From contig BAAFHK010000001.1 in the NCBI GenBank assembly GCA_042852035.1, forward strand, positions 30,001 to 62,000: a stretch of 32,000 bases of DNA, in the 5' to 3' direction. A program made the position numbers and the translations under genes. How positions within the stretch are numbered: the stretch's first letter is position 1; every line of letters starts with the position of its first letter. Shown in pieces: positions 1-32,000 of the stretch. Below the pieces are notes generated by a model. That model was not told the origin of the DNA and did no database searches. It was given only the letters and a program-made list of their open reading frames with translations. The DNA comes from Candidatus Saccharimonadota bacterium (GTDB lineage: Bacteria; Patescibacteriota; Gracilibacteria; BD1-5; UBA2023).

Positions 1-1
1 A

Positions 2-385
2 CTTACCTCTCAGGGTGATAGGCTTCTTAGGGGTGATTTGGTAGATGTATATTGACCGAATACTGTTGAATTCATGCATATCTTAGCAAGAAAGCAGCTC
101 ATAAAAGAAGGAAAATTGAGAGGGCAGATTGGGTATGAAGGCGTCCATCTTCCTCCAAAGTTTTCCAAGCTCACCTATGATGAAATCGTAGAAACCCTTC
201 TTTGGTATGCTGAGTACTCGAGTGATGAAGAACGAGAAGTTATTATGGAGTTTCTCCTCACTGATGGTCGATGTGGTGGATCATATAGGGAATTCAATGA
301 GAAAAATAGAAGAGTCCAAACAATCCTGACCCAGGTTTCGAATTCGCAAGTTGGGCAAAAATTCCCTAAGGATGATTCCTTATAA
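2..385 (+). CDS. hypothetical protein, 5'-truncated by the window edge
   Basis: The frame is open from nt 2, with one in-frame TGA at 53..55. It runs into track ORF 74..385 and stops at TAA 383..385, followed by a hairpin terminator. No family recognised. Confidence 0.5.
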
Positions 386-433
386 AATCTAAAATTTCTC
401 GTAGACGGAGAAATAAGAAAACGTGGTAACTCT

Positions 434-462
434 AAAAATCCCTCCACATCGGAGGGATTTTT
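434..462. terminator. bidirectional rho-independent terminator
   Basis: Perfect 12-bp stem aaaaatccctcc / ggagggattttt with loop acatc. A-run and T-run flanks sit between convergent CDS ends. The stop codon of the minus-strand gene lies in the 3' arm. Confidence 0.7.
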
Positions 463-1315
463 AATAAGTTGGATTTGGTTGCCAGACTCACTCGGGTTCA
501 TTGGGATTTGATTTATTTCAAAAAGCCTTTTTCTTATAGACAGGTATATCTCAGAGATGAGCAAGTATTTTTCCACGAACGACTCATTCATTTTCAGTTG
601 GGATGACATTCGCATAACGCTTCATGAGTTCTGGAGGGAGTGTTATCCTCGACATCACCGATACTTGCACCCCGATCATTGTTGGTTGAATTTGCATGCC
701 TACCACATCCATACCATGTTCTACTGGCAGCTCAGGAAATGGTTCTATAGGATCAATATGTCATTCAAATATAAGCTGACACTGAGTTTCTCCATTTTCT
801 CCTGGGACAAACTTCGGTACCGATATAAGTTTTCTCTCCTCTGTTTCTATATCGTTTTGTGCGAGGAGTGAGAGGAGTGATTTCCAGTGTTGGAACTTCG
901 TCATAAGTTCAGCTGCAATAATCCTATCCTGATCATGAGGAGAAAGGGTATTTGCAAGAGTAGTGTTTACAAGTTTTCGAGTGGTAAATCTTTGAAAAAG
1001 AGAGGGTTCTTTAATGACGACATGGTAGAGGAAACCTCACACCATTGAGAGTGACCTTTTTCGAATAGAGTCTTTTAGGCTTCGTGCTTCGAGGCTTTCA
1101 CTTGGGTCATCTTTAAGGATTGCCCACTCTTCAGGGGCTACTTTTTCTATCCATTTGACTGAGAGTTCTTTTGGTGACTGCCATACAGCACTATTGGTGA
1201 GACTAAATAGAACATCATATGTTCGAGAATATCATTTCCGAATACGGCCCCAAAGCCTATGAGCAGCCTCAGCATAGATTTCATGTTTTTTTTCTAATTC
1301 CGTTGGTGCATTCAT
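461..1315 (-). CDS. hypothetical protein (284 aa under table 25)
   Basis: ATG at 1315, TAA at 461..463. The minus frame was checked triplet by triplet with no TAA/TAG; 7 in-frame TGAs are read as Gly. It absorbs track ORF 175..615. No family recognised. Confidence 0.6.
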
Positions 1316-1478
1316 GAGACTTTTAAATAATTAGTGATAGATTCTTCAAGAAGATGTGAGGTCTAGAGTATCTCCTTCATATGGACTCAATTCTAAGAAT
1401 GTTTCGAATTCATAATTTTTATATATTAATAATTATATCATCATGTCAAATTTATTTTCATGAATATTGCTATGAGAT

Positions 1479-2309
1479 TTATTCTTCTCATTTTGGGATA
1501 TATCATCCTCAGAGATTTTTTGCATCGAGTCTTGGAACTACTATGGTTCGGAAAATAAATTCGAGTCGACGTTCTGGAGTATTGTATTTCTCAACTTGTA
1601 GAAGTGGGAATCATCGTAGAATTGCAGCGTCAATCCACTCGAGGAATTCAGCATAACTTGATAGGAGTATCCGAGATTTTTCTCTATTTGTTCCGTATCG
1701 GGCAATCTGAATCTGCGCCTCCTTCACTTCCCCTTCACTGTGAGCAAGTTCGGTTACTGCAAGGATTGCGAGAAAGAGTAGAGGAGGGGTATAGTTTTCA
1801 TCTCGAACAAATGAAGTGGCACTTACGTGGAGCTCAAGAAGTGGGTCAATAATTTCATAGTCATAGCCATGCTCTGAGTCAGGGCTTGACATAGGGATAG
1901 CTTCTGGAAAAAATCCTCTTTCATTCGAGAGAAGGTCCTGCTCAACATTATCAAAGTCAGCGGGATCTTCATCTTCCGTCTCTAGGATATACTGATGTTT
2001 TGCAGTGTAAGACAGAAGGTATTCCAAATAATCTTCTGTATCGGCATCTAGAGTGTCAGCCGTATATTTATAAAAATCAGCAACAGGGAGACTAATTTTA
2101 TCAGGAGTTTCATCTTCCTCGTTAAATGAGAGAACACAGAGGGTATCGCTTGGGAGAACAGGACCTTCTTTCCCTTGGAGCAAATAGAGAACCTTTTTCC
2201 TACTAAGAATATCAAAAAATAATCGAACTCTTGGATTCTCTGGGAGTCTCTCGGTGTGTACTCCGAGGACTTGAGAAAGTTCTATAATTGTAGTGGCTCT
2301 ACCAGCCAT
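1479..2309 (-). CDS. acidic hypothetical protein, paralogue A (276 aa)
   Basis: Track ORF 1611..2309 ends on TGA. Read-through continues across 3 more TGAs to TAA 1479..1481. It shares N-terminal GRA(T/V)..E and (D/G)(E/D)TP..ISL..DF motifs with the next gene. Confidence 0.6.
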
Positions 2310-2470
2310 ATGGGGAATAGTTCATGAACAAGCTCATCCATTATTTCATCAGTGATCTTTTTTTTCGACATTGGCGCGTGGGGTGAACTGAAGGACTTTC
2401 GAAGTCATTTTGCAAAATAGTATTAAAGAATTTTCTCTCTATGAGAGCTATCATTTCGAGCTCGTTATAT

Positions 2471-5337: not shown

Positions 5338-6510
5338 ATGAAAATTTCTTTTTTTCCAATCTCTTTTCTTTTGGGGCTTTCTTTTTTTATCGGGAATGTT
5401 TCTGCCGAATCACTTGAACATTTTGCTACAAATGACGGAAGGCATTTTTGTTCTGTCTTTATGAAAAGTGAATTTAAACCTTGTGAGGAATTCGGAGTGG
5501 TCTATGAGGGTGACCGAGTTGTAACAGGGAGTGAGCCAGGTTTTTCTGCAGGATTTCCGAGTATCGAAAAGGTTACTATTGGTAGTGAGGAATTTTGCGT
5601 CGAAGGATCACTTGATGCCCCTGGGCATGAGGTAGATATGGAGAAATGTAATTCCGCTTCTGAGAATACAACGGTACAAGAATATGAAGAAAATGGGGTA
5701 AAAGTACGAATAAAAATGTGAAATACTTCTCTTTCTGATTCTGAAGATACAGGCATAACTACTTCTGATTCCCTTCAGAATTCTTCTTCATCATCAGAGA
5801 ATTCTTGAATTACCGATGAGTCTCTCACTCCATCCGAATCTGAAGATATATCAGGAACAGGAGAGAGTTTTACTCCTTCAGAGAGAGCCATAGCAGTTCC
5901 AGTATCTCATACTGAGAAGCCACAATTTACTCCCATCAAGGAAATTAAAGGAAGTTGTAAAGTGAATGGTCAAGAAGTTGACTGCGAGCAAGTGGCAAAT
6001 GAAGTAAAAGCAGTGGCAAAAGCTGGATTGGGTATACTCGGTATGGTTCTTATCTTTGGTTTTATTTTTAGTATTTTCTGGATTTGGATGTTGGCACATG
6101 CGCTTATGAATCCTATACCAAACAAGACACTCTGGATACTTGCTATTTTCTTTCTCTCTCCATTTGGAGCAATTATCTACTTCTTTGCAGTGAAAAAGAA
6201 TTTTCAGCCCCAAAATTCTTACAACCAATACCCACAGACAACTCATCTTCCCCCAACTCAAGTCAATCCAACACCCTGAGTAACTCAAGTTCCTACTGAA
6301 ATGAATACAATGCCGATTATTACTCCTGTTGTAGCTCCGAGTATTCAAACAAGTACTTACTTATCTGAATCAAACCTGGGAGTTCAGTCTTCTTTCCAGA
6401 GCGGATCAGTATCACCAGAGACTACTTCGACTTGACTACATGATTCTCAAACCTCAGCCTGAGATATATCTTCTTCAACTCCTTGAAATACTACTGAAAA
6501 TCAGGGGTAG
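5338..6510 (+). CDS. signal-peptide protein with Ser/Glu-rich linker and C-terminal PLDc_N-type transmembrane domain (390 aa)
   Basis: ATG 5338 gives MKISFFPISFLLGLSFFIGNVSA. The frame was verified across TGAs (5719, 5806, 6277 and others) to TAG 6508..6510, joining track ORFs 5284..5721 and 5962..6279. IFWIWMLAHAL...KTLWILAIFFLSPFGAIIYFF matches the PLD-nuclease N-terminal (PLDc_N) two-helix motif. Confidence 0.6.
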
Positions 6511-8378: not shown

Positions 8379-11300
8379 ATGTCTAGAAATGATATAAGTC
8401 AAGCAGAACTTGAAGATCTTGAACTAATCTGTCGATCACTCGAAGAAGAATGAGTGCTTGATGGACTTGTTCAGGGTGTTGATTGAGTTCGCAGAGAGGC
8501 ATTCAAAAGGATTGAACTTACCCTTTCAAAGTCTCAAGAATCAAATCCTCGAGTAAAAGAAAATTTTCCATTTCTTCTCTATCGTCTTTGAGATGTACTT
8601 TGAGCTGTTCATTTTGTCCTTTCAGAAATCGAAACTTACTGAATCCGAGACGTCCCGCGAATTGTGGATACATTTAAACTCGCCGTAGAATGATATGAGC
8701 AGCTTCAATGAGTCGAGCCATCTGAATCAGAACTTGTTACCGAAAGGGATAATGCGCAACTTCGGGAGCTTTCTCTCGGACTCAATCGGATTCTCTCATT
8801 TTTGCCCTCTGATCTTCCAGATTCGTTTCGACTCCGCTCTCTCTATGCTTCAAAAATAGAGAAAAATGAAAAATCAGCGAGTGATATATATGAGGATTTT
8901 TTCCGGAGTAAAGAACAAAAAACAGTCGAAGATTATAAAGAGAGTGCGAAACTTCTGGAGCTCCAATGAAGACTTGAAGAATCCTTCAATCGACTTCGTG
9001 ACGGATGTGACATGAGCAAGGATTACTCTCTTTTTGAGCAGTATATCCGTATGGCTCTCATATTTCTCCCCGAAGAAGTTGCGAGAGAGATTTTTGATTT
9101 TTCCCGACCACCGAAGTATCCCTACCCATTCAGTTTTCATAGAGGATGAATTACTTCATTTACAGAACTTCGCGAATTGAGATCGGTTGTATGATATTTC
9201 GAGAAGCATCTTACTGATAATACATGATATGCGATATATTTTGAAGCATCTAATGCATTTTGTAATCATTTAATCGAAGGTGCATCACAATATGCAGTAA
9301 AGAAGGATTTTTCATGAGAGATGAAACTGGATGATGATCTTAAGAAATACTTTCGAGTTTTACTTGAGGCGCTCGAAACGCAGTTATTTTATTTGCGTGA
9401 TTTTACCCATCTCAATCATTATCTTGCGATTATTGATACTCTAAAAGATACTCCAGAGGGTCAGACATTTCTTTTTGAATATTTTACTGATACATCGCTT
9501 TCACCTTCGCCAAAAGAACAAGTTGAGCTTACGAAGGATAGAATTGAGCGCTGTGGGACTTCGCTTTCAACTTTTGATGAGGATGTTGGATGACTCTATA
9601 CGCCCATAACTGGATCAAATGCTCTTGAGAATGGATTTATGTCGGAACTTTCTTATCGGTATGTCTTGCTTGCAAAGTATATTTATGGAACCAATGGAAC
9701 GAATGAGGTGAATTCATGAGGAGGTGAGACATCATGAACTCTTTCCAAAGAATCCTATACACTTGAGGGAATGCGGGATTCACTTGATGGGATGAGTCAT
9801 TCACTCGTGAAATATGGGAGTGAAATTGAGGATTTTCGGCTTCGTCAGTGAGCCCGTGAACAATTTCTCTCCCGAACATGAATTGAGGTTGCGACAGAAT
9901 TCCAGGAGTTTAGAGAGGCATTGATTTTAAAATATGGAATAACTCTGATTCATGTCATTAAAACTGAAGCAATGGATGAAGATTACACTTGATCTTCAGC
10001 TCCGCATATATGTCTTGCTCATCCAGAGCTCAGTCTTTATTTCTATACGGAGAGAATTCTTGCTGGATATGAAGAAAATTTTAGTGAATCTATCGCAGAA
10101 ATATATGGAGATCATAAGTGGATGTATCTCCCTCATCGTCATATTCTGTTTTTTGCGGAGATGTTGCTTGCAAATAGTCGACCGAGTGAGGCAATCTTAA
10201 TTCTTTCTCGTTATCCTGATTCTGCCGTAAATCTCGATGCCTTGAATTGTATGATTCGATCAATTGCCCGTATTCGTGCGAGTAAAAATACTGAATTACT
10301 TGATACAACACTGGCAGAACTTGATAATTTTGCTTCGAAGATGAGCGGACATGAAACCTTCGAATCTCTCCTCCTCACCCTCACTCAGAGTTATAGTGAG
10401 GATCTTGATGCTGCAGAGACGAGCCAAGAGAGTTCAGAAGACGAGAAAGAACAGATTAAAACCGATCTTGCTCTTTCATCATATCTGTTTGGGGCAACTC
10501 TTCGATATTCTGCCCCTTCTGAAGCCCTTCACTATCTAGAAGTTGCAAGATGATATGGGAGTATCGAGGCGCTTGTAGAAATCGCAGAAATAGATCTCGA
10601 GAAAGGGACGGGTGATCCTGAGAATATTATCGATGGATTTGAGGGGCAGATGGATGGTATAACATGAGAAACATATTTGCGAGTTCTTCGTGCTATTATA
10701 CGAGCAGGTGCAAAAATTATAGAGAGTGATGAAGATTCTCAGATAAAAGAAAAAGCAAAAAATGCCATACATCATGCCATTCAAGCTGCTCGAAATGAAT
10801 CTGATCCAAATATTCTATGATGTGCAGTGGAGGCATTTCTTGGGAATCCCGTTACTCGGAGGTATTTTTATTCATACTTTGCAAGCGTAAGTGATGATGA
10901 TATACTTGCTCTTGATAAGAAAGAGTTAGAGTCTATAAGAGATGCCTGTCAGAAAGATCTTTCGATACAAGATCTTCCAATTGCCCTGAAAATGGCAATT
11001 ATCTATGCCAAAGTTCGACTCTCAACCATCAGCGAATCTTCCTTTACTCTCTCTACTTGGTGAGAATTCCTTCGAGCCCTAGAAGATGGACTTCCAGAGC
11101 TCGATAGTCCAAAATGACAGATAAGTGTTACTGCCTTTGCAGAAATAATTTATCAAAATATTTCCATGGAAAGCGTTTCTGAAAATGCTGTTCTTTCACT
11201 TCATGCATTTGCCTGTGATATTCATAGAGATGCTGTTGTAACGATAAAAGATGAATGTGTAGCAGATAAAAAGATAAAAAATAAAGAAAGGTATAAAGAG

Positions 11301-11558
11301 CTTCTTGGAATTCATGCCTCACTTCTTGAAGTTATTCTGAGAGTTTTCTCAAATTTCAAAGAAGCAAAAGAGCTTCTGGTCGAAGCGCCATCAAGTGATG
11401 ATGAAGAGAATACCATGTCACATCGGAGTATTTTTGAATATTGGCAGAGAAGATACTATGATGTTGTTACTACTAAAGCATATTATGAGGCTCATGAGAG
11501 CCTGAAAGATTCAGTACCAATTCGCACTCTCGGATCAGAAAGCGTGTTAATCCATTAG
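8379..11558 (+). CDS. giant hypothetical protein 1 (1059 aa), probably helical, function unknown
   Basis: The frame was verified codon by codon from ATG 8379 to TAG 11556..11558 with no TAA/TAG. It joins track ORFs 9321..9593, 10122..10553, 10827..11063 and 11166..11558 across many TGAs. Acidic patches (ETSQESSEDEKEQ). No catalytic motif recognised. Confidence 0.75.
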
Positions 11559-11563: not shown

Positions 11564-14500
11564 ATGTCTCACGTAATAGAAAGAACTGAACATCCTGAAG
11601 AATATGATCTCCTGGCGGACGAGGCAATCATCTCGGGTCTTTCCTCTGATTCTTTTCGGCAAAGACAGAGAGTCTGAGCACAAGTACATAAAACAATTTC
11701 ACGAGATCAACTCGGTGAAGTGAGTAAAAAATTATTTGAAGAAAGGCATGCCTTGTATGGATGGATTGAATACTGCCTCAGGAATAATCTCCCCATAGAT
11801 GAATCAGATGTGGAATCGGTCTTTCAGGAATATAGAAAAGATTATGTAGCCCGTAAACAAATCGCAGACTACTCATATGGAGATCGAGAGGATCAAGCCC
11901 TTGAGGAGGTTTCAATAATCTTTCAACGGTTACAAAACCTCTCGAGACTTCTTACACGAAATCCAGATTTGATACGACTTTCTGTTCTTACGCGAGCAAG
12001 GATAATGAGAGACACGAGCCAAGATATTGAAGCTACTATTTTACTTCTTGAATCCCACCCTGAGATTCTCGGTGTACACATAGAACTTATGGAGATTCTT
12101 GCTTGGGCGTATGAGCAAATTGGACAAGATGAGAAAGCATTTGATATCTATGAAGATCTCCAGTGCACTACCTGACAATTGAAATTTCTTGAGAAAGAAA
12201 TTGAAATTCTCTATAGACTTTGAAGGCCTCATGAGGCAGATCGTCGTTATGAATTTATGGCGAATGTGGAGGATCCAAAAATCCCGAAACTCAGACCAAA
12301 GGTATATTATCGCACAACAATCGAAGATACTTCTGATCTTGCAGAGCTTGATATTGCACTTGAAAGAGTTCTTATGGGCGATGTTTTCGATGAACAATCA
12401 AAAACAATTCTCAAGAATGCAGAGGAATATATTGAGAAAAGGCTGAAAGCGCTTTCAAAGAAGATTAAAAGTCTTTTTAAAAGGACAGGACAATTATATA
12501 ATCCAGATGCAGAGCCACTTCATCTTGAATTTCTCTATCTTTTAGAAATTTCTGCTTGTGTACTTTTTCTTGTTCCCGGGAAGAATAAGGATCAAATGCG
12601 CTGAATTCACCGCTATCTTTATGTCTTGTCTGATCATTATGATGACTATAGAAAAAATCCAGCATGATCAATGCTGAATGCATATTTTTCGGAATATAAC
12701 AGGGACTTTATTGCTCGTATTCGAAAGCTCCAATGTGAAGAAGCTCAAGATGAGGAGAATGAAGGGAAGTCGTGAGATACTATTATTCCAGAAGCTTACG
12801 CAGGTATACCATATCATCTCGCGGAGACTCTTGAATTTCTTTTCGATCGCACGGACAGTCCAACACATGAAAATCGAGCCATTCAGGATGATATTGAGGA
12901 GCTTCATGATAAAATCGCTGCCCATATAGTAGATATAGAACCGATTAATGAAGATGATTTTGAAGGATGTTCACAGATTATTCTCGTACGACTTGAGGTA
13001 CTCAATGAGGATGATCAAAGAATTTATGAATCATTAAAAAAATATGTCATATGAAAGTATGGAAGAACGGTATTTGAGTTGGTTTCATTTTATGCTCATA
13101 CCATAGATAATTTTTCTGAACTTGCCCTTGATGCTATACGTAAAGATCCAAATGTTCTTCTCTACTCGATACTTACCACACTTTTATGATGAGGTCACCA
13201 TTCCTATGATAGGCTTGCATATTTTGTGCTTGATCCTATCCTTGAAGCCCTTGATCCAAAAGATGCATATTTTCTTTCTACGATGCTTTTTCGAGAGGGT
13301 CATTATTCACTCCTGGCTGAATTTCTTCTCAATGATGCATATTTGCTCTGACGGCCTGAATTTCTAGAGCTATTTCTATTAGCACTTACTTACTGTAGTG
13401 ATCTAGAGGCTATGAAATTTCTCGATGACTGCGAATGAGAGATGCTTCCTGATAGGTATGATTTTAATACGATAGGGGCATTTATAGATGCATTGGAGCG
13501 AGACAATCGAGGGCGAAATCCGCGATCTCACTTGACTCATGCGAGATTTCTTTATTCGAGGCTCCAAGAGGAGAAAATTACTTTTGAGGCATTTTCCTTA
13601 GCTCCTATTCCTTCGGACATGAGACTTACTCGTGTGCAAGCATCTCAGTATTTTAGTATATTTCGCTCACTTCCATATCCAAAGTCAGAAGCAGAAAAAA
13701 TTGAACGAATCGCTTATCTTGAGAGTCTCTATCCTTTTATGTGATTTGAGAAGCGACCAGTAATTGAGGCTATATTTCTGCTTGCTGCGGAGTCACCATC
13801 CCAATATGAGACCATTCGGAAATATCTTCGTACAGCAGGACTTTTTGACGAAATATCACTTGGACTTTGGAAATACTTTCCTTGAGTACTCTGAACGGAG
13901 GAACAATTTCGACATACACTCGCTTCGCTCGCTTCAAATCCAAATATTTCATCTATTCCTGAAGAAGTTCTTTATAGGATACATAAACGTCCTATTGATA
14001 GACTTCATTCTGGTCATCTTCTTCAAAGACAATTCATTTTGCTACACTCACGAGGTTCTCTCAAGGAGGTTCTTGATGGGGGACGTTCTTATTTTGAGCT
14101 TCTTTGAAGAGTCCTAGCAATTCACTCAACATGAGGGCAAAATTGGAGTGAAAATTATGATCTCATATGTGAGCTTGTTCAACCAGAAGGCTATAGTGGA
14201 TTAAAAGGGCAAATAACTATCGATACTGAATTTGAATATCGTACAAAAATTGCGCATTTAATACTCGAACAATTTGATCGTATTCGCCAGCATGCTTTTG
14301 AACAATTTATGAGAGAGGCGAATATGGACGAGCAATCTACAGAGTCAGAAGATGAACCAGATTCGAATCTTTGGAGAGATACATTTACTTCGTGTGTTGC
14401 GATTTTCCGTGAATTTTGAATTGATATGTGATTTGGATCTAGGATTGAACGAATTATTGAGGATGATATCCGGATGCTTCTTTCGTGAGAGGTGCTTTCT

Positions 14501-14566
14501 GATATTTGGGAGGATCCAAAGGAAGAAAGAAAAATTGAATTTGAGCCAGGACGAGTCGTTCACTAG
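11564..14566 (+). CDS. giant hypothetical protein 2 (1000 aa), probably helical / TPR-like, function unknown
   Basis: ATG 11564 lies 5 nt after the upstream TAG. The frame was verified to TAG 14564..14566, joining track ORFs 11720..12175, 12257..12604 and 13442..13744. TPR-like helix pair ILAWAYEQIGQDEKAFDIYEDL. No other family signature. Confidence 0.75.
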
Positions 14567-15264
14567 AATTGTTCCCAGAAAATACTATTTTTTTCTATGC
14601 CAAGTGCTTCAAGTTTTCCTCGAGCACTTTTTACCATGGCTGGAGATCCACAGAGATAGTATTCTTCATAGTGAGAAATATTCTCCCTCGTTATCCAATC
14701 GGTTACATATCATGTCCGTGATTGGTGAACTTGGCTGGTATCTTCAAGGTTTTCCTCCCGAGAATAGTACTGAATATAGGTAAAAGCTTCAAAGTTTTTA
14801 CCAACTTTTTCTATGTCTTCACCATAAAAATAATCTTCGTGGTGGCGTACTCAGAATATAAATGCAACAGTGCTGGGTTTGTTTTTTGCTAGACTTGAGG
14901 CAAGCATCTGGCAGTATACGGGAGCAAATCCTGTACCAGTTCCAATAAAACATTTACTCCGAGGAGTATCCCTAAGAAGAAAGTGTCCAAGTGGAATTAT
15001 TGCGTGAAAGACGGTCCCAATTTCAGCATCACAGATAATTGGACTTCCTCTTCACTCAGGAATTCTTTTAATAATAAGCGTAAAGTCAGTCTCACGAATT
15101 ATAGCTATTGAATATGCACGGTTTAACCCTGGAGCAAGTTGGAACATTACATAGTGTCACGGTTTTGGAGATTCTTGTATCATTTCCGCACAATAATAAG
15201 TGAGTTCAAATACGTCATGGGTAAGTTGTTTTTTTGCAGTGAGTGTTATAGTCGTGCGCAACAT
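14563..15264 (-). CDS. FNR-type FAD/NAD(P)-binding oxidoreductase (233 aa)
   Basis: Not in the ORF track because of 4 in-frame TGAs. Manual translation gives the RAYSIA (RxYS FAD motif), GTGTGFAP (NAD(P) motif) and CGSPAMV C-terminal motifs. ATG 15264, TAG 14563..14565. The frame was checked for TAA/TAG. Confidence 0.7.
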
Positions 15265-15670: not shown

Positions 15671-16660
15671 CTATTTTGCCTTTCGTACTTCTTTTTCCAT
15701 CTCTTTGAGAAGTTTCTCATTCTGTTTTAGAAAGTCACGAGCATTTTCTCTACCCTGTCAGAGGCGCGTTTCACCATAGGAGTAGAATGATCCAGATTTT
15801 TTTATGATACCCCGTTCAGTACCGATATCGAGCACTTCTCATGCCCGAGAAATCCCTTCATTAAAGAGCACATCGATTTCAACTTCTCGGAATGGAGGTG
15901 CAACCTTATTCTTTACTACCTTCACCTTCACGCGATTTCCAGTTGCTTCTTTATCATCTCAGGTACCACTTTCAAGTTTTTCTTTACGGCGGATTTCCAG
16001 TCGCTGTGATGCATAGAACTTAAGTGCATTTCCTCCAGTAGTGGTTTCTGGGTTTCCAAACATTACTCCAATCTTCATGCGGATCTGGTTAATAAAGATG
16101 ACCGTACTATTGGATTTATTGATTACGCCGGTTACTTTACGAAGTGCTTGACTCATGAGACGAGCCTGAAGACCCATAAATGAATCTCCCATATTTCCTT
16201 CAATTTCAGCTTTCGGAGTGAGGGCAGCTACGGAATCAACAACGATGAGATCAACTGCTCCAGAACGTACGAGAGCATCGACAATTTCTAAGGCTTGCTC
16301 ACCATAGTCAGGCTGAGAGACGATAAGATTATCGATATCTACTCCAATCTTGCGCGCGTATTCTGGATCAAGGGCATGTTCAGCATCTACGAAAGCAGCA
16401 GTACCTCCGGCACGTTGAACTTCGGCGATAGCATGAAGCGTGAGTGTTGTTTTACCAGAAGATTCAGGTCCAAAGATTTCGATGATGCGACCTTTTGCAT
16501 ATCCGCCACCGAGTGCCTCATCGAGGGCGATTGATCCAGAACTGGAAGTTTCGACCTTCATGTGAGTTTTTTCACCGAGTTTCATTACGGATCCAGCACC
16601 AAATTGTTTTTCTATCATCGAGAGTGCTGCATTAAGAGCATCTTTTTTATTATCAGTCAT
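15671..16660 (-). CDS. recA: recombinase RecA (329 aa)
   Basis: Track ORF 15959..16660 carries GPESSGKTT (Walker A) and IVVDSVAAL. Read-through of TGA 15959..15961 continues with [12 protein letters not shown]...GETRL-G-QGRENA to TAG 15671..15673. Confidence 0.97.
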
Positions 16661-16837: not shown

Positions 16838-17464
16838 TTAATTAAAGAGGGTTCCTGGAAATGAACGAATAAATATTCATTGTACCATTATGTTTCCATC
16901 AGATTCATCAAGAATAATTGGTTTGTGAAGGGGATTGGTTGAATGAGGAATGAGGTATACGCAATTTTCGATTTGTCGATATTCCTTAAGGGTAGCTTCA
17001 TCATTAATCAGTGCGACGACAATTTTTCCGTTTTCAGGAATATTCGTCTTTCGTATAAGTACCAGATCACCATCTTCTACTCATTTCTTGTTCATCGAGT
17101 CTCATTCAGCCCTGAGGAAGAAGTATTCATCTCAAGAAGAGAGAAGTTTTGTTGATATAGGAATCTTGGTTTCGATATTTTCTTCTGCGAATATCGGCAT
17201 TCCACAGGCTATAGCACCGACGAGAGGGATTCATCGAACCTCATAGCTATCAGTACTATACTGAGGAGAGATTTTGATTTCATCTCTTGTATCTCGGTAG
17301 ATCCAACCTTTTTCCATAATTTGATCGAGAAGGACTGATATCGAACGAGGAGAAGCATATCCCAGAGCACTCTGGAGTGCTCGTATAGTGATTTTTTCTC
17401 CATTCGAGAGATATTCTCTTACTTTTTGGAAAACAAGTTGTTCTTTGTTGGTAAGTTTTTCCAT
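16838..17464 (-). CDS. lexA: LexA repressor (208 aa)
   Basis: N-terminal winged-helix region (LTNKEQLVFQKV...ASPRSISVLLDQIMEKGWI). VGAIACGMPIFAEE cleavage region. AE-G-DSM serine-protease motif with TGA 17102..17104 as the Gly. ATLKEY catalytic Lys. ATG 17464, TAA 16838..16840. The frame was checked. Confidence 0.9.
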
Positions 17465-17525: not shown

Positions 17526-17528
17526 ATT

Positions 17529-17555: not shown

Positions 17556-17572
17556 AGAGAATGCTATAATTA

Positions 17573-17830
17573 TTATTTTTTTCTTTCGTAATGTTCTTTG
17601 AGTCCTTCTATGGTTCCAATGGCAATACGTTTTCCATGGCATATGGGGCATTCATAGAGGTATTCTTTCATTTTCTTTCCGATTTTTTGTGGTTCGAGCT
17701 TGATGGCTTCGACTTGCTTCCAACAGTCACGACAAAAAAATCCGACATCACCACGCTCAGGATTGAAGGTGTCTTCACGTTTTTTTCCAAAAGAGGGAAC
17801 ATTGACGAGGTCATTATAGGAGGTAGTCAT
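17573..17830 (-). CDS. small zinc-ribbon protein (85 aa)
   Basis: ATG 17830 (MTTSYNDL) lies within track ORF 17573..17863, whose first codon is TTG. Two CxxC pairs (CRDC, CPIC). TAA 17573..17575. No internal TGA. Confidence 0.55.
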   Translation of the reverse strand: MTTSYNDLVNVPSFGKKREDTFNPERGDVGFFCRDCWKQVEAIKLEPQKIGKKMKEYLYECPICHGKRIAIGTIEGLKEHYERKK

Positions 17831-17907: not shown

Positions 17908-18996
17908 CTACTCAAAAATCCCTTCAAAGAATCATTTTTCCATCTTTTTTCCACTCTCGAGCTCAAGAAGGGCTGTGTAGAGTTTTTTTTCTTCACTTGA
18001 GAGTTTTGTCGGAATATCAATCTCATAGTGGATGATAAGGTCTCACTTCATTCCTCTTCGATCAAGGCGAGGAAATCACTCATCTCGGAATTTGAGAGTT
18101 TCACCAGAAGAGGTTCCGTGTTTGATTTCGAGCGCACGTTTTCAGAGAATAGGAATCTCGATATCAAGCCTTCCACCAAGTACTGCGAGAGCTGGGGAGA
18201 GTTTTACTATATAGTGGAGATTTGCTCAGTCTCGCTCGAGTCACCCCTCTCGGTCGGGGACATCGAAGGTAATATAGAGGTCACCATTACCATCTCTTCC
18301 TCCATGTCATTCATCTCGGAGTTTTATGCTCATTCCATTTTCTATACCAGCAGGGATATCAATATCTTTTTTAATAGATACATCTTCGTATTTTTTTCCG
18401 TGACAGACACTACATTTTTCTATGATTTGTTTTCCAGTTCCGTGACATACTCCACAGTTTCGAGTTTGTTCCATTGTACCGAAAACGGTTTGTACTCGTT
18501 CACGTACTCGCCCATTTCCTCCACAACTTTCGCAGGTTTTTGTGGTTCCACCATATCCTTGGCATGATCCACATAAGGTTCGGCGTTTAAATTCAACTTT
18601 TCGAGTATTTCCCTTGATAGCATCTTCAAGTGAGATATTCATCCGAATCTCGATATCTTCACCGATATCTGCATGTTTTCTTCAAGCATTTGAAAATCCT
18701 CCACCAAAGAATTGGGAAAAAATATCTCCGAGATCTGAAGCATCAAAACCTCATTGAAATCATCAAAATCCCCCCATTCATTCCGTAGTGCCGAATCGAT
18801 CATAATGAGCTTTTTTCTGCTCATCAGAAAGAGTAGCGTACGCTTCGTTTACTTTTTTAAATTGAGCCTCTTTTTCCTTATCTCAACCATGACGATCGGG
18901 ATGAAGCTCCATTGCCTTTTTCTTATAGGCACGTTTGATTTCATCTGCAGTTGCTGTACGCTCGATTTCGAGGATAGAATAGTATTCGTATTGCAT
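17908..18996 (-). CDS. dnaJ: molecular chaperone DnaJ (362 aa)
   Basis: J-domain [31 protein letters not shown]. The G/F region has four TGAs at 18751, 18760, 18763 and 18778. Four CxxCxGxG zinc-finger repeats lie in track ORF 18307..18642. The C-terminal domain was verified to TAG 17908..17910. Confidence 0.95.
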
Positions 18997-19099: not shown

Positions 19100-19414
19100 T
19101 TATGCATGTTTCATTATGGCAGCCTCAAGTGTTGCAATATCTTGAACTCCAACAAATTTTTCAACGGCTTGACCATCTTTAAAAATAATAATGGTAGGTA
19201 TACTCATGATACGAAACTGTCCAGGAGTATTTGGTTCATTATCAACATCGTGCTTCATAACTTTTGCCTTTCATTCAACTTTGCTTGCAAGTTCTTCGAG
19301 ACGGGGAAGCATAATCTGACATGGTCCACACCACTCAGCCCAGAAGTCGACAAGGGTAATTCAAGAGGCAATATTGGTAGCGAAATCTGCATCGGTAGAA
19401 ATTTGAGGTGACAT
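19100..19414 (-). CDS. trxA: thioredoxin (104 aa)
   Basis: Manual translation gives LVDFWAEWCGPCQ (WCGPC active site) and MSIPTIIIFKDG. Two in-frame TGAs hide it from the ORF track. ATG 19414, TAA 19100..19102. Confidence 0.93.
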
Positions 19415-19505
19415 AAGCAAAATAATTACAAGGTATATGAATGAAACATTTACTGATAAAACATTTCTCGTCGAATATTATAGAAAATTCCTGTATAATT
19501 GCAAG

Positions 19506-19536
19506 ATAAGTAATGAGAATAATTCTCATTACTTAT
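19506..19536 (-). terminator. long perfect hairpin downstream of the methyltransferase gene
   Basis: ataagtaatgagaat / attctcattacttat are 15-nt inverted arms around one central base. No strong U-run, so terminator function is uncertain. Confidence 0.3.
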
Positions 19537-19554
19537 ACTGATTTTTATCTATCT

Positions 19555-20130
19555 TTATAGCTTTAAGGGTGCTATATTTTTTCTTTCAAGAATCATGATG
19601 CTATCATCAATATCGGTTTTCTCGAGCTTGTAGGGGATGGTATTGATTTCTAGGTAGGAGTAGAGATTTTCCATCTTATCGCGAAATTTCTCAACATCAT
19701 CAATAACGATAATTGCATCCTCTGTTAGTTTTCGAAGAGAGAGGAGGAGATAGTCGAGATATTCTCGCTTCATGGCATCGATATAGAGGAAATCAAAGTA
19801 TGCATCTGCGAGAGTGGGTATGATGGCTTTTGCATCTCACCATAGGGCATAAATATTTTTACTTTTACAATTCTTGAAGTGCTCTACTGCCTCAACGTGA
19901 GCATTCCAAGCATACTCGATAGTAGTAATAGTGCTACTATCTGCAACTGCTTGGGAAAATTGAAGTGCTGAATACCCGTTGGCGGTTCCGATTTCAAGAA
20001 GATGCTTTGGGGCCTTTTCTCGGATAAGATCTTTTATAAATTCGGCATTTTCCTCACTGATATTTGGAATTTTTCTCTCTATTCCATTCTGTTTGAGTTT
20101 TTTAAGATATGTTTGCAAAAATTGAGTCAT
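19555..20130 (-). CDS. class I SAM-dependent O-methyltransferase, family 3 (YrrM/TrmR-like) (191 aa)
   Basis: Track ORFs 19837..20130 and 19555..19773 are in the same frame and join through TGA 19837..19839. LLEIGTANGYSAL (SAM motif I) and FDFLYIDAMKREY are typical of family-3 O-methyltransferases. TAA 19555..19557. Confidence 0.8.
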
Positions 20131-23100: not shown

Positions 23101-23259
23101 CATTCTTTGTTTTATGCCCATAAGAGCTTCTTCTCATATTCAGAGGAGTTGTGCTCGTTCGATTTGCTCAGGATTGAGTGGGAAATATTTTCATAGTCCC
23201 TCTGCTGATCAGAGGGAAGAAGTCGGGGCTTCAGGATGTCACAGAGTGTCTATTCACAT
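20167..23259 (-). CDS. giant hypothetical protein 3 (1030 aa), function unknown
   Basis: The minus frame was verified line by line from ATG 23259 to TAG 20167..20169 with no TAA/TAG. It joins track ORFs 22555..22797 and 22183..22488 across dozens of TGAs. Pro/Lys-rich linker VPVKKTPPSRIRKTPPALRPS. No family recognised. Confidence 0.75.
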
Positions 23260-23415: not shown

Positions 23416-26400
23416 ATGCAAGGCAATACTCATATGCGAAATGGTGATATCGTGGATGTATATGGAAGAGTTATTACGAGAGAAGAGGCTTTTGATATAA
23501 TGCGAATGGCTCACGGGCTGCCGGCTGCAAGCATGAGAGCTGATATTCTCCATGCTTTGGAACATCACCCGATAACTATAGTACAAGGAGAAACTGGAAG
23601 TTGAAAAACAACACAAATACCAAAATTTTTAGTGGAAAGATATCCAAATAAGCAAATTGTCGTAACTCAACCAAGAGTGCTTTCTGCCATAGCAAATTCG
23701 AATCGTGTAGCGCTAGAGCTCCTTGCTGAGACTGGAAATCCAAGATTTTCAATATGACAAAAAGTTTGATTCCGTACATGACCACAAAAAAGCCACCCCT
23801 CTACAGCCCCACTTTCTTTTCATACCGATGGACTGGAGCTGAGGAGACAGTTGGTAGCATCCATCATACCTGATATTCTTGTTCTTGATGAGGCACATGG
23901 ATTTCCTGTCGCAGGAGAAATGATTTCGTGGAATATGCGAGAGAAACTCAGGAAAGATCCTAAACTTCGAATGATTATCACCTCAGCAACTCTTGATCCA
24001 GCAGTATTTCGAGAGTACTATAAGGGTATAGATCGTGATATTCCTCTCATTCAAATTCCTGGGAGGACATTTCCAGTTGATCGGAAACTGGACGCAGAAA
24101 GCTCTCTGATAGATGAGGTTGTTATGGCTTATAGAAATTGAGAAAACATACTCGTTTTTGAAGCGTGAAAAAAAGAAATCGAGCTTGAAATCGAAAAACT
24201 CCGAACAATTCTCTGACCTGATGCCCAGATATTTCCTTTGCACGCAGAAATGCCAAAAGAAGAGCAAGAAAAACTTTTAAAAAAGGATCCCAACGACCGA
24301 AGGCCTCGAATTATTGTAGCAACGAACGTTGCCGAAGAGAGTATTACTATTGATTACATTGATCGAGTTGTAGATAGTGCTCGATATAAAGTTTCGCGTT
24401 ATAATGAGGCCTGAATCCCAGGACTGTATCTCGAAGATATTCCCATGTCGAGCGTTAAGCAACGTTCCTGAAGAGTATGAAGAACCCATCCATGAATATA
24501 TTCTCGTCATAGTGATACACCGTTCAATGAATTGCCAGAATACGGGGATGCCCCGATAGAAAAAGAAATGCTTGATCAGCACATTCTTATGCTCCTTGCG
24601 GAAGGTTATGACATGCGAACAATTATAGATGAAGCTAAGAGTCGTGGAGAAAGTCCATTTTATCATAGATTTGATGTGTGACTTCTTCGTATTTCTTATG
24701 AGAGACTCAAACAAATTGGTGCAATTACCAAAAATGGAGCCCTCACAGAATTAGGATACACACTTTTACGTTACCCTCTTGATGTTTATTACGGACGCAT
24801 GCTCCATGAATCCATTGATCGATCTTGTGTTGATGAGATGATGATTATTGTATCGATACTTGAAAAGAAAGGATTCCTTTCTAAAGAAGACACATGGAAG
24901 AATCTTGGTATTGTAAAACCGGGTACGTCAGACCTTGCTGGATATACGGCATTATTTCGTTTCTTTACAGCCACAGAAATTACCCCTAAACAAGCAGAAA
25001 AACTGAAAGAATTCTGAGCAAATCCGGATGAAGTTGACGATTTTATGACACGAAGGCACTCGAAGAATAATCCAAGACTTTTTGAGATAGTTGATCTTAC
25101 TCCAATTGGCGTAAAAAAAGCAAGGATTAAAGCAGTATATGATAAGTACCTTGAGCTCCAAAAACGATTTGAGATGCTTGAAATACCTATAACAACAGGA
25201 AAAGATAAAAATGCTATTGCGATTTCTATAGCTACATGAAGTCCATTCTTTCTCTATTCTTATAATGATGAAGAAGGATGATTTATCTCACAAAAACAAT
25301 CAGGAAGCAAAGATGCGGATATATTTCGAATGGGGGATATTTCACTCGTGGAGCCTGAAGACGGTGCGCGTTACATAGGGCAACCATTTATTATTTGACC
25401 GAAAGATGAATCGAGCTCGTGAATGAGGCTCCTATCATTTATTACTCAGGTAGATGATGCTATTATAAAGGAAGCACAGGCTACCAATGCTCGTTATGCA
25501 AAAGCAGAATATTCTCATGAAGAATGAAATGTCCATCATGCTGGTATTTTAGAGTGGACATGAAATCAAGGAGGAGGATCTGGAGGTGTCACTCAGGCGT
25601 GAGCGAGATCTTTACAATGACAATCAACCGCAGCAAAGGGAAGTCCTCATCGAGCTGAGAAACTCGCGCATTATCCTGATATAGCATTAGGAGAAGAAAC
25701 TTATGCAAACTCTCTTGAGCAACTTTATGATGCTCCATTTACCTCTGATGAAGCATCTCGGGATTATTATCTTCGATACTGTCTTCCACTTTTTCTTATA
25801 GAACACAATCAGGCAATTCGAAAATATATAAAATGAAAATCACCAGAATGGGTTGCAATATTTCGAGAGTTGCTCACACGATTCGTTCTTGATGAGGCTC
25901 AACGTATTCGATTACAGAATTTAGAAGTAACAGAACGAAGTTTTCGTTATGACTCATGAATTCTCCAGAGATTTGAGGAATCAAATGACTTTCATATTCG
26001 TTACTTCAGGATTCATGGGATGCTTCCTGAGATACGAGGACCAAAAGAGGGCGCTCCAAAAGAAAGTGATTTTGACATTTTGGACTATCCAGATGAAGAT
26101 ATTGAGGGAATGAGAAAGCAATATGCAAAAAGACTCGGATGAGCAAACCGATTCAGTGTAGCTATCGATTCCGATAGTATCGAAGAGCAATATTTTACAT
26201 CGCGAGTACTCGCCATTAGTGAATGAGATGGAACTGAAGAAGAAATAGGTGCATATGCTGTTATAAAGGACATATATGATTCAGTTGGTCGATTGGATCA
26301 AGTTGAGAGAGGATCAATGAGTCGATGACTCAAGAAGATGAGTTCTCAAAAGAAGGATATTGATAAGCTCGCGAAAAAAATATGAGGACTTCAAGTAGTA

Positions 26401-27105
26401 TATGATGCACTTTCTATGGCTTCAGATTTACGATATAGGGCATCAAGTTTACGAGTACATCAAAAGGTGCTCCATGATGCATGAAAAATTTTTGAGGATT
26501 TTTGAATTTGAGGATCTTATAATCAGGCCCTCCAAAGAGCATTTTCAGATGATTCGAAAAAAAGAAAAAGAGGCGCAAATGCCCTTAAATGATACCGAAC
26601 AGCATTGGGGGGATTAATTCATTCACATTCTGAAAGAAAACGTGAATTGGAAGGGCAACTTTCATTTGCAGAATTTCCACAACTTCGAACTCTTTGAGAT
26701 ACGTTGAATCGTTTGGCTGCGAGTATGTATCAAGGTGACTACTTAAGACTGCGAATTCAACCAAAGATGCTAGAAACTTTACGGGCTCTTGTGCGAGATT
26801 ATGGAACAGAACGTCTATGAATGGATGCTCTACTAACGAATTTTATTTATCATAGACAATCAGGGAATTTCCTTGTGGACGATGGAGTAAAATTTCAAGA
26901 AATCCGAGAATATCTCGATGCATGGGAAGTTATAGAAAATCATCAGATGGATATCGCTGAAGAAGTTAAGAAATCAGACGATGCTGAATATATTCGATTG
27001 ATGCTCAAAAAACTTGAAGAGGCAATATGAAATCTAGAAGAGTCGCACAAAAAGCTCAAGCGAAATCCAATCTATAAGAAATTCCAAGAATCTGTTAAGG
27101 CCTAG
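23416..27105 (+). CDS. hrpA: HrpA-like DEAH-box ATP-dependent helicase with long C-terminal extension (1229 aa)
   Basis: GETGS-G-KTT Walker A (TGA 23602..23604), LDEAH, TSATLD, TNVAEESITI, and QRS-G-RV-G-R motif VI (TGAs 24469..24471 and 24478..24480). HA2-like region LTELGYTLLRYPLDVYYGRML. The frame was verified to TAG 27103..27105. 34 in-frame TGAs. Joins track ORFs 23416..23604, 23851..24141, 24799..25017, 25045..25239 and 26821..27030. Confidence 0.85.
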
Positions 27106-27574
27106 AAAGGAGAGATGGAATTTTCGGAGCAAATATAATTCTAATAACCATCTCTCGTCTCAGGTTTATGAACTGCTCTAGGAATTTGAGTACAAATTCT
27201 ATATCTGATTCACTGCGTTTCGTACTGAGGAGAGCTTTTGAAGTGTCACGATTATAAGCAAGAGCTCTACCGCTTTTTATATTTCTTTTTCTCTGATTTC
27301 TTCTTTCTATTCCAGAAAGAATATTTGGTAGTGCTGTTTCAAATTCTCTTCTTCCTTTTGCCAAATTTTCAAGATCGAGAAGGAGTTCTTTATGCATTTT
27401 TTCTCTCGTCTCATAAGACAAAGTTCTTTTTTTATGCTCATGAGCAAGGAATGCTGCCACGCGTCACCTTACCCTGTATCCAAGTCTCATCCATGTATTT
27501 CATACCTGTGAGGGAGAAATCTTATTACTCGCAAGGTCTTCAATCGATAATGTATCCTGAGAAGTATGTTCCAT
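27095..27574 (-). CDS. hypothetical basic protein (159 aa)
   Basis: ATG 27574 lies 2 nt after the recG stop. Joins track ORFs 27500..27706 (part) and 27095..27460. TAA 27095..27097. Its 3' end overlaps the convergent hrpA end by 11 nt. No family recognised. Confidence 0.45.
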
Positions 27575-27576
27575 AA

Positions 27577-29547: not shown

Positions 29548-29742
29548 TTCTCGTATAGTAGAGAAAAAATAAGAAAAGGCAAAAAATGAAAAAGGCCACA
29601 CTGCATACTGCAGGGGCCAATGTAGGTTGGAAACTCCTTTCGGAGTCAAAGAGCAATCCTTTCCGGTTGCCTAAGTGGTCAGAGACCATTCCGTGATTGA
29701 TATGCCACCATGGTTATTTTGACTTCTGGTGGAGGAGAGATG

Positions 29743-30006
29743 TCAGGGCGCCTTCACGAGGTGAACATCGAGTTGCCATTGATGCTTCTTGCGCAGCCAG
29801 TCAGCGCAGCCAGGGCAGATCTTGATGCCGGTGGCTTCGAGGCAAGCGATGAAGCGTTCCTGTTCAGCGGCACCAGCAGCCACCAGAGCGTTCCAGCTCG
29901 ACTGCAACTTCTGCAGCACGATGACCCCATTGGTCGCAAGACCTTGGAGCATCTTGCTGATGCTCGAATGTATCCCGTCTTCACGGGAGCCTTTCGGTTT
30001 TCTCAT
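29743..30006 (-). CDS. small protein of unknown function (87 aa if TGA is stop; 111 aa under table 25)
   Basis: ATG 30006 is preceded by AAGGAAG (plus 30015..30021), 8 nt upstream. No internal TGA. Ends on TGA 29743..29745; the next table-25 stop is TAG 29671..29673. Cys cluster C-x9-CPGC. Confidence 0.5.
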   Translation of the reverse strand: MRKPKGSREDGIHSSISKMLQGLATNGVIVLQKLQSSWNALVAAGAAEQERFIACLEATGIKICPGCADWLRKKHQWQLDVHLVKAP

Positions 30007-30121
30007 GTCGTTGTCTTCCTTGTCTCAGATGTCTGATTTCCCACCATTCTTCAGGTGAGACCTTTTACCACAGGATCAGTGTGGTAAATAGTAAATTAGA
30101 GATTTATTTTATTTTGTCAAT

Positions 30122-30151
30122 ATAAAAAAGATTCACGATTGGGTGAATCTT
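30122..30151 (-). terminator. rho-independent terminator (minus strand) in the AT-rich spacer
   Basis: Minus strand reads aagattcac-ccaatc-gtgaatctt followed by ttttat. Confidence 0.55.
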
Positions 30152-30167
30152 AGGTTTATACAAGTGA

Positions 30168-30189
30168 AGGCCCGCGCAGTGGCGGGCCT
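30168..30189 (-). terminator. GC-rich hairpin downstream of the 105-aa ORF
   Basis: aggcccgc / gcgggcct 8-bp stem, 6-nt loop. No clear U-run. Confidence 0.4.
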
Positions 30190-30262
30190 CTTTACCATTC
30201 CCTCGTTTCTCCTTTCATTCCTTACTTTCGTAGAAACTTAGGAGAATGGTTGTTGGAGGGGT

Positions 30263-30580
30263 TCAGTGCAGCCGGAGTTTCTTCCGCTTGCTCTTGGCGG
30301 CTTCGATGAGGTCATGCGCCGACTGGAAGGGTGACTTTTCGCCGTGGCGACGCTTCACACCGTGTTCTTCCAGCAGGCGCTCTTCCTCTTGCTTGAAGGC
30401 AAGAATCGTCGGGGACAACTTCGTCCCCGAGGCGTGATTCTTGTCCAGTTCATAAGCCGTTGCCAAGAGCTTGGTCCAGCGGTCCTTCTTCTGGGCCGAA
30501 CGCTTCTGCCGGGCATGCCAGCTTTGGCGCATCCGGTCACCACGGGACCTGTCATTTTCGTGAGTTTGCAGTTGTTGCAT
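30263..30580 (-). CDS. small basic protein of unknown function (105 aa if TGA is stop; 158 aa under table 25)
   Basis: ATG 30580 is preceded by GAGGAGG (core GGAGG = plus 30585..30589). No internal TGA. Ends on TGA 30263..30265; the next table-25 stop is TAA 30104..30106. Lys/Arg-rich. Confidence 0.55.
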   Translation of the reverse strand: MQQLQTHENDRSRGDRMRQSWHARQKRSAQKKDRWTKLLATAYELDKNHASGTKLSPTILAFKQEEERLLEEHGVKRRHGEKSPFQSAHDLIEAAKSKRKKLRLH

Positions 30581-30678
30581 TTCCCCTCCTCAAGGGAATA
30601 GGTCAAATAATGAACTGGCGCCCCACGGCACCATCATCCTATTAAATGACACCTGTAGTCTATCGCTTCTCTAGTTTC

Positions 30679-30759
30679 TTGTCAAACAAATTTTCTCATT
30701 TTATATATGAAAATGATTCTCACTCTTTCATTTTACTCGGTTCTTTTTTTAGATATAAT
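30679..30759 (+). promoter_or_regulatory. candidate sodB promoter(s)
   Basis: Candidate 1: TTGTCA 30679..30684, 17 nt, TATATA 30702..30707. Candidate 2: TTTTAC 30731..30736, 17 nt, TATAAT 30754..30759. ATG at 30782. Confidence 0.3.
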
Positions 30760-30781
30760 ACGTCTATATTAAATTTTTACT

Positions 30782-31369
30782 ATGTCATTTATTCTTCCTT
30801 CTCTCCCATACGCTCTTGATGCACTCGAGCCTCATATCTCAAAAGAAACTCTTGAATATCACTATGGGAAACACCATCAGACCTACGTTGATAATCTGAA
30901 TCGTCTCCTTCCAGGAAGCGAATACGAAGGGAAAACTCTTGAGGAAATTATAAAGAATGCCCCTGCTTGAGGAATATTTAATAATGCAGCCCAAATCTGG
31001 AACCATACATTTTATTTTGAATCCCTCACGCCTGCTGGGCACCATATTCCTTCGAAATCACTCTATGATGCGATTAATCTGAGGTGGGAATCTCTTGATA
31101 ATTTCATTGCAGAATTCAACAAGGCAGCTCTCGCAAATTTTGGATCAGGCTGGACCTGGCTTGTTACAAAAAAAGATGGAACACTCGAGATTGTATCCAC
31201 GAAAAATGCAGATACTCCTCTTACTACCTCTGAGATTCCACTCCTTACTTGTGATGTCTGGGAGCATGCATACTATATTGATTACCGAAATGCTCGAGCG
31301 AAGTATGTAGAAAATTTCTGGAAGGTAGTCGATTGGCATCGAGTGAGTGATCGTTATGATAAAAGATAA
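30782..31369 (+). CDS. sodB: Fe-type superoxide dismutase (195 aa)
   Basis: [25 protein letters not shown], then TGA 30968..30970 at the Gly of [16 protein letters not shown], then [16 protein letters not shown] 31367..31369. Confidence 0.95.
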
Positions 31370-31373
31370 AAAT

Positions 31374-31401
31374 AAAAAATCCCGCACCTGCGGGATTTTT
31401 T
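31374..31401. terminator. bidirectional rho-independent terminator
   Basis: Perfect 12-bp stem aaaaaatcccgc / gcgggatttttt, loop acct, between convergent sodB and the transferase gene. Confidence 0.75.
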
Positions 31402-32000
31402 ATTTTTTCTTCACGATTGAGAGAATCTTTGTCATAAAGAGAGTGATGATTGCGATAAAAATAAAGAGAATTATTTTTCCTTTTGTATCAAGGAAAATAG
31501 CTGCGATTCAAAAGCTTGCTGCGAGAATGTATATGATATTGCGAATATTTGCATGAGTGAATCCAAGTTCAAGGAGACGAAAATGGAGGTGATGAGTCTG
31601 ATCTCATTTCATCGGATTTTTCCCTTGCATAATACGAACCCCGACTACATATATAAGATCAATAAGATAAATCCCAATCACTGACATTGCAGTAGCAATC
31701 TTCCCTCATGCTACGATCGCAAGAGTTGCAATAAAGAATGCGAGGAGTATTGTTCCAGAATCTCCCATAATCCCACTCCGATGAATATCATGATAGGTTA
31801 CAAGAGCTGTTATGGGCAAAAGAATCATCACGAAAATAAGGATGAATTGACTGTTTTCAACTGCAGCTTCTGTAGTATCTGTGAGTGAGAGTTTAAGAGC
31901 GAGAAATCAAAGAATTACGAAGCTAATAAGAGAGAATCATCATGTTAGCCCAGGGATTCCATCAGAAAAATTTATGCTATTAAATACTAGAACGTACCAA
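31400..32000 (-). CDS. glycosyltransferase family 4 polyprenyl-phosphate sugar-1-phosphate transferase (MraY/WecA family), 5' end outside the window
   Basis: The manual minus-strand translation is open to the window edge. FNSINFSDGIPGL (NxxNxxDGxDGL), MGDSGT and DQTHHLHFRL motifs, hydrophobic throughout. TAA 31400..31402. Several in-frame TGAs. Confidence 0.8.

Follow-up and report, generated by a model that had tools for sequence, protein, structure and literature searches.

The stretch analysed here is a 32-kb segment of contig BAAFHK010000001.1 (positions 30,001 to 62,000, GC content about 39%), referred to below in its whole length as the window, and the subject is the reading of the codon UGA (TGA in the DNA) by its genes. 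Read with the standard code, the window has no open frame of 300 amino acids (aa) or more, the longest being 255 aa, so that a preliminary description, made from the letters of the DNA, was right to report fragmented standard-code open reading frames (ORFs). When TGA is taken as a sense codon, 15 frames reach or exceed 300 aa, with a maximum of 1,235 aa, and the resulting set of 23 genes covers 88% of the window. Control recodings in which TAG or TAA was made sense brought no rescue, the frame maxima being merely 277 and 314 aa, respectively. In-frame TGA codons were found in 22 of the 23 genes and amount to 198 of 9,397 codons, while TAA or TAG terminates every one of the 23. These genes are listed below with TGA read as sense and with the TGA counts referring to in-frame codons. 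L001 denotes the closest relative by RecA and L083 another close relative.

461..1315, minus strand: hypothetical protein, 284 aa; 7 TGA, stop TAA, no Pfam match
1479..2408, minus strand: hypothetical acidic protein, 309 aa; 8 TGA, stop TAA
2471..3343, minus strand: hypothetical protein, 290 aa; 5 TGA, stop TAA
3485..4303, plus strand: hypothetical protein, 272 aa; 5 TGA, stop TAA
4373..5182, plus strand: CAAX/Rce1-like membrane protease, 269 aa; 1 TGA; PF02517 (E=1.5e-7)
5338..6510, plus strand: secreted or membrane protein with a PLDc_N domain, 390 aa; 6 TGA; PF13396
6640..7992, plus strand: secreted Cys-rich protein with META and SLH-like domains, 450 aa; 7 TGA; PF03724
8052..8336, plus strand: small conserved protein, 94 aa; 1 TGA, with TGA at the same site of the L001 orthologue
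8379..11558, plus strand: 1,059-aa protein, function unassigned; 23 TGA; no Pfam match
11564..14566, plus strand: 1,000-aa protein, function unassigned; 19 TGA; no Pfam match
14563..15264, minus strand: ferredoxin-reductase-type oxidoreductase (NAD_binding_1), 233 aa; 4 TGA, all 4 of them GGN in L001; PF00175
15671..16660, minus strand: recA, 329 aa; 3 TGA, including 15758..15760 (RLxQGRENA)
16838..17464, minus strand: lexA, 208 aa; 5 TGA, including 17102..17104 (AExDSM), two residues before the catalytic Ser
17573..17830, minus strand: small conserved Zn-ribbon protein (CxxC...CxxC), 85 aa; the sole gene of the window without TGA; no Pfam family
17908..18996, minus strand: dnaJ, 362 aa; 13 TGA, four of them in the G/F region (18751..18780)
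19100..19414, minus strand: thioredoxin (WCGPC active site), 104 aa; 2 TGA
19555..20130, minus strand: O-methyltransferase (Methyltransf_3), 191 aa; 1 TGA; PF01596
20167..23259, minus strand: 1,030-aa protein, function unassigned; 38 TGA; no Pfam match
23416..27105, plus strand: DEAH-box helicase, 1,229 aa; 34 TGA, with 23602 in Walker A and 24469 and 24478 in motif VI
27095..27574, minus strand: hypothetical protein, 159 aa; 2 TGA; a 159-aa orthologue adjoins recG in L083
27577..29547, minus strand: recG, 656 aa; 7 TGA, with 28690 in Walker A and 27703 and 27697 in RGPGE
30782..31369, plus strand: sodB (Fe superoxide dismutase), 195 aa; 1 TGA, at 30968..30970
31400..32000, minus strand: glycosyltransferase family 4 (MraY/WecA-like), C-terminal 199 aa; 6 TGA; PF00953; runs off the window

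Read with the standard code (translation table 11), all genes except one are broken, which is what a window filled with pseudogenes, or one whose in-frame TGAs were sequencing or assembly errors, would look like. This explanation was rejected and is vanishingly improbable: the 198 interruptions are exclusively TGA and never TAA or TAG, the frames are preserved, GGN codons stand at the same positions in relatives, and the same in-frame TGA pattern recurs in relatives from many samples. In addition, a separate Logan assembly agrees with the window at 100% over 10.8 kb, two contigs of run DRR350542 (L081 and L082) being 100% identical to positions 16939-19556 and 23742-31943. The C-termini of RecA, RecG, DnaJ, LexA and SodB, as set by TAA or TAG, match those of solved homologues.

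The amino acid inserted at TGA was approached through alignments to PDB sequences in which TGA was masked as X, so that neither glycine nor tryptophan was presupposed. In RecG and in the DEAH helicase, TGA was found at the glycines of Walker A; it also stood at the pair of glycines in helicase motif VI (QRxGRxGR), at the RecG RGPGE glycines and the RecA GQG motif, at the glycine preceding the LexA catalytic Ser, at SodB GG-IFNNAAQ, and at many DnaJ glycines. The individual codons on which the preliminary description had built its case are all coding-strand TGAs, both those on the plus strand (23602, 24469, 24478 and 30968) and those on the minus strand (28690, 27703, 27697, 17102 and 15758), and four TGAs do lie within 18751..18780 (minus strand), the stretch it had assigned to the DnaJ G/F region. 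The motifs it quoted around them were recovered as well (GETGSxKTT, QRSxRVxR, GDVxTGKT, LRxPxE, AExDSM, RLxQGRENA and xGIFNNAAQ), together with GGFxxFQxGF.

A calibrated count was then obtained by comparing six window proteins (RecA, LexA, DnaJ, HrpA, RecG and SodB) with their Escherichia coli K-12 orthologues. Here, TGA falls on an E. coli glycine at 27 of 38 sites (71%) and GGN at 101 of 131 sites (77%), rates that do not differ (Fisher p=0.52). Against the 8.7% share of glycine among the aligned E. coli residues, the 27 matches have a binomial probability of P=1.2e-20. TGA falls on an E. coli tryptophan at none of the 38 sites, compared with 8 of 13 for TGG. For these six proteins, the earlier statement that the TGA columns are glycine and not tryptophan columns is thus borne out, and so is the argument drawn from it against translation table 4. 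Codon composition gives the same answer. GGN makes up 4.7% of codons and TGA 2.1%, their sum of 6.8% being a normal glycine level in which UGA accounts for about 31% of all glycine codons. TGG makes up 0.87% of codons, and adding TGA to it would mean an abnormal tryptophan level of 3%.

Comparison within the lineage provided two further tests. By RecA, the closest GTDB representative is L001, a Candidatus Gracilibacteria metagenome-assembled genome (MAG), at 85%, all other matches being at or below 69%. Five orthologous genes were compared codon by codon with L001, in true coding frames only. Among the 20 aligned sites with TGA in either the window or L001, 17 pair TGA with GGN, one pairs TGA with TGA, and two involve other codons; swaps between TGA and TGG were seen at 0 of the 20. 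L001 itself carries TGA at invariant RecA glycines. Furthermore, the 120 RecG proteins nearest to that of the window, which belong without exception to the recoded lineage and served solely for this argument, show mixtures of glycine and tryptophan at 7 of the 7 columns that correspond to window TGAs. At the columns of window TGG codons, tryptophan is present and glycine absent among the same 120 proteins. In total, 30 of 655 RecG columns are mixed in this way, and 28 of these 30 lie at window glycine or TGA positions. The tryptophan in the mixed columns arises because assemblies were translated with table 4. Since glycine or tryptophan in the RecG homologues of the lineage depends on the gene caller, E. 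coli and PDB proteins were taken as the code-independent references. Altogether, four independent tests (alignment columns, codon swaps, RecG mixtures and composition) support the action of TGA as a glycine codon.

A competing explanation is table 4, under which UGA would be tryptophan. Mycoplasmatales and a number of insect endosymbionts read it so; Hodgkinia, Zinderia, Nasuia and others are counted among the users of this code, and loss of release factor 2 (RF2) is its usual correlate. The window resembles these systems in that a reduced, low-GC genome has turned UGA from a stop into a sense codon; the amino acid is different, namely glycine instead of tryptophan. TGA is clearly a sense codon, some Logan gene calls of the same DNA place tryptophan at TGA, and early BD1-5 records carry the label 'gcode 4', all of which would suit table 4. 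Nevertheless, the assignment is very improbable, given the absence of TGA from E. coli tryptophan positions where TGG is frequent, and the 17 swaps with GGN, against none with TGG, in the nearest relative. Under table 4, tryptophan would climb to the level noted above while glycine would drop to 4.7%, and RecG and the helicase would lose their activity through tryptophan in place of the glycines of Walker A and motif VI. Selenocysteine was likewise rejected, without a dedicated test, on the number of sites (198), their glycine-type columns and the lack of any SECIS-type (selenocysteine insertion sequence) Rfam match.

Taken together, the window is almost certainly a chromosomal segment of a member of the Gracilibacteria (BD1-5, 'Candidatus Altimarinota') that uses translation table 25, with UGA as an ordinary glycine codon and with UAA and UAG terminating the native genes. 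All named RecG relatives of the window are Gracilibacteria, and on single-gene similarity the window is placed in the recoded clade within the CPR (candidate phyla radiation), with Gracilibacteria/BD1-5. The preliminary description had guessed a CPR lineage of this kind, and the guess agrees both with the RecA similarity to the Gracilibacteria MAG and with the exact protein records, which are labelled Candidatus Altimarinota. When translated with glycine at TGA, RecA, DnaJ and SodB are exactly NCBI GAB0174157.1, GAB0174161.1 and GAB0174170.1 ('MAG: ... [Candidatus Altimarinota bacterium]'), which are located on a 750,307-bp contig, and RecG matches the NCBI Altimarinota record P0020. Candidatus Altimarinota is taxid 363464, the identifier listed for Gracilibacteria in the Codetta paper (PMC8629427). 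The exact NCBI matches mean that the window is already public and annotated with UGA as glycine. The UGA-to-glycine code of the window is therefore already known: it is NCBI table 25, and the sequence was deposited with it.

The match with table 25 is complete as far as the code is concerned: the window shares with it the glycine sense of UGA, UAA and UAG as native terminators and a low-GC CPR host, and no difference in code was seen. PMC8629427 traces UGA-to-glycine reassignment in Gracilibacteria/BD1-5 and Absconditabacteria/SR1 to earlier reports (Campbell 2013; Rinke 2013), and the attribution of table 25 to these two groups in the preliminary description is consistent with that literature. 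Proteomics has confirmed that UGA is glycine (PMC4032931). The Codetta program recovered the reassignment in 13 of 15 Gracilibacteria species, and the two exceptional species keep prfB, the gene for RF2, and are without a tRNA-Gly(UCA) (PMC8629427). Another study (PMC6851277) reported that none of the BD1-5 genomes available at its time has prfB. The gTranslate preprint assigns table 25 to the GTDB class that contains BD1-5 and Absconditabacterales.

An extended code has been described in the same group, with Codetta predicting CGA and CGG as tryptophan for Absconditabacteria and CGG as tryptophan for some Gracilibacteria (PMC8629427). The window has UGA-to-glycine in common with this extended code; the reassignment of CGA and CGG to tryptophan was not seen in it. 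CGA is used 161 times (1.7% of codons, 173 per 10,000) and CGG 35 times (38 per 10,000), and CGG stands at invariant arginines of RecG (DEQH-R-FGV and ATPIP-R-T). In a small sample of 8 CGG and 45 CGA aligned sites, neither codon fell on an E. coli tryptophan. As CGA is common, CGG occurs on invariant arginines and neither falls on tryptophan, CGN appears to remain arginine. The lack of this extra change, predicted for Absconditabacteria, sets the organism with Gracilibacteria/BD1-5 and apart from SR1.

By analogy with the lineage, UGA would be decoded by a dedicated tRNA-Gly whose anticodon is UCA, and it may have been freed for reading by the loss of RF2 (prfB). ARAGORN detected no tRNA-Gly(UCA) in the 10-kb flanks examined of L001, of other RecA loci and of the close relatives L083-L089. 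As support at the level of the lineage, metagenome contigs were scanned with a pattern comprising U33-UCA-A37, the T-arm, the CGC 3' acceptor half and U73, which yielded ten 79-nt tRNAs (CCA included) with the anticodon UCA on contigs of other genomes. All ten genes carry the glycine identity set G1-C72, C2-G71, G3-C70 and U73; the tRNA(UCA) of these related recoded contigs thus has glycine identity elements and not those of tryptophan, another difference from table 4. The contigs have low GC content, their ORFs become much longer with TGA as sense, and TGA is found at the P-loop glycines of Cmk and UvrD. An identical 79-nt tRNA(UCA) occurs in L120 (2639-2799, minus strand) and L182 (624-796, plus strand), where GC content is 38-40%, and lies 5 nt (L120) and 17 nt (L182) from a tRNA-Gly(GCC). 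The pair looks like a tandem of glycine isoacceptors. In L182, the gene that adjoins the tRNA(UCA) encodes a YmdB-like phosphoesterase. ARAGORN labels the UCA tRNA 'SeC', a call made purely by anticodon.

Several observations weigh against glycine as the uniform meaning of UGA in the window. No tRNA gene was detected by ARAGORN in its 32 kb. Of the 38 TGA sites aligned with E. coli, 11 fall on residues other than glycine, a rate equal to that of real GGN codons. One TGA, at about 23767-23769, occupies the conserved arginine of the helicase VGYxIRF motif, where the helicase therefore probably has glycine. Finally, TGA closes two ORFs of a GC-rich cassette that lies between recG and sodB, and it does so at their natural C-termini, as a true stop would look. 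The earlier claim that only TAA and TAG end the reading frames accordingly stands for all 23 native genes and fails for these two ORFs. The features concerned are:

29620..30753, no strand assigned: GC-rich island of 1.1 kb, GC up to 58% compared with about 38% elsewhere, containing the two cassette ORFs
29743..30006, minus strand: cassette ORF, 87 aa; GC content at third codon positions (GC3) 0.68, no internal TGA, ends at TGA
30263..30580, minus strand: cassette ORF, 105 aa; GC3 0.72, no internal TGA, ends at TGA

The two orphan cassette proteins have almost no relatives: a search of 1.84 billion representatives returned a single match at 80%, located on a 528-bp contig, and a single one at 55%. 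Both homologue contigs have a GC content of 51%, and the gene pair is found in unchanged order on one of them. Each of the three homologous genes has its TGA stop at the C-terminal residue of the window protein; in particular, P0019, the homologue of the 87-aa ORF, and P0140, the homologue of the 105-aa ORF, terminate with TGA at the same residue. This shared ending in the sole homologues is what speaks for a dual meaning, in which UGA would be glycine inside native genes and still act as a stop in some contexts, such as the ends of the cassette ORFs. Such a dual meaning is nonetheless highly unlikely, if marginally less so than table 4. The two ORFs have a GC3 of 0.68-0.72 against 0.26-0.38 in native genes, none of their 192 codons is an internal TGA (P=0.017 at the native rate), and their glycine codons are GGN in 11 of 11 cases (P=0.017). 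Relatives lack the cassette, and the contigs that carry its homologues use the standard code, so that a recent import fits better. In addition, the 23 native genes uniformly avoid TGA as a terminator, and prfB is reportedly missing from every BD1-5 genome that was available to an earlier survey (PMC6851277).

The island is probably foreign DNA, to judge from its base composition and its distribution. In close relatives, its place is taken by a GGDEF gene together with small, unrelated ORFs, with no similarity to the island; the independent Logan assembly does contain the island. Rfam gave no family match anywhere in the window, and an RNA gene was rejected for the island on that basis; a plasmid or phage fragment was rejected with no blastn match in PLSDB or INPHARED. 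The cassette ORFs had no Pfam match and weak PHROG matches (E >= 0.009), and no convincing terminal repeats of the island were found. The simplest reading, at about even odds, is that the cassette is a two-gene module which a genome with UGA as glycine acquired recently from a donor with the standard code (a host bacterium, plasmid or phage), keeping the UGA stops of the donor. Donor UGA stops in such a recipient imply that the cassette genes would be read through (by 24 and 53 residues) or would not be functional. If the import is real, it would offer a natural example of DNA that has crossed from one genetic code into another, and the donor or host might be traced from it. For the native genes, the conclusion on table 25 is not weakened by the island.

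For users of public data, the value of recognizing table 25 is practical and not conceptual: the window adds one more Gracilibacteria genome with the established UGA-to-glycine code, and the standard-code cassette inside a recoded genome is the sole point of possible wider interest. A gene caller with the default code shreds 22 of the 23 genes of the contig. Calling with table 4 puts tryptophan at catalytic glycine positions, as Logan-derived proteins for the same organism do, and table 25 is thus needed for any functional reading of the contig. DnaJ and SodB translated with tryptophan were found solely among Logan gene calls, from run DRR350542. The same Gracilibacteria genes are stored twice in public collections, with glycine in NCBI (table 25) and with tryptophan in Logan and in older 'gcode 4' records, as seen in P0001, P0004 and P0020-P0139. 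Within clusters at 90% identity, these duplicate translations produce artificial columns polymorphic for glycine and tryptophan, the 30 of 655 in RecG being an example.

Among the other genes, the helicase at 23416..27105 is HrpA-like over its N-terminal ~480 aa only, with 35% identity to E. coli HrpA over 447 aa, and its C-terminal ~750 aa have no Pfam family match. No paralogy was found among the three ORFs of about 1,000 aa (8379-11558, 11564-14566 and 20167-23259). In its syntenic region, L083 lacks both the last of these and the helicase, while L086 and L087 have at this position a 1,022-aa ORF with no DNA similarity to the window; the absence in the former and the unrelated ORF in the latter two mark a variable region. 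The glycosyltransferase that runs off the window has a 374-aa orthologue in L083. The Zn-ribbon gene lies between lexA and dnaJ, a position conserved in the relatives L001 and L083.

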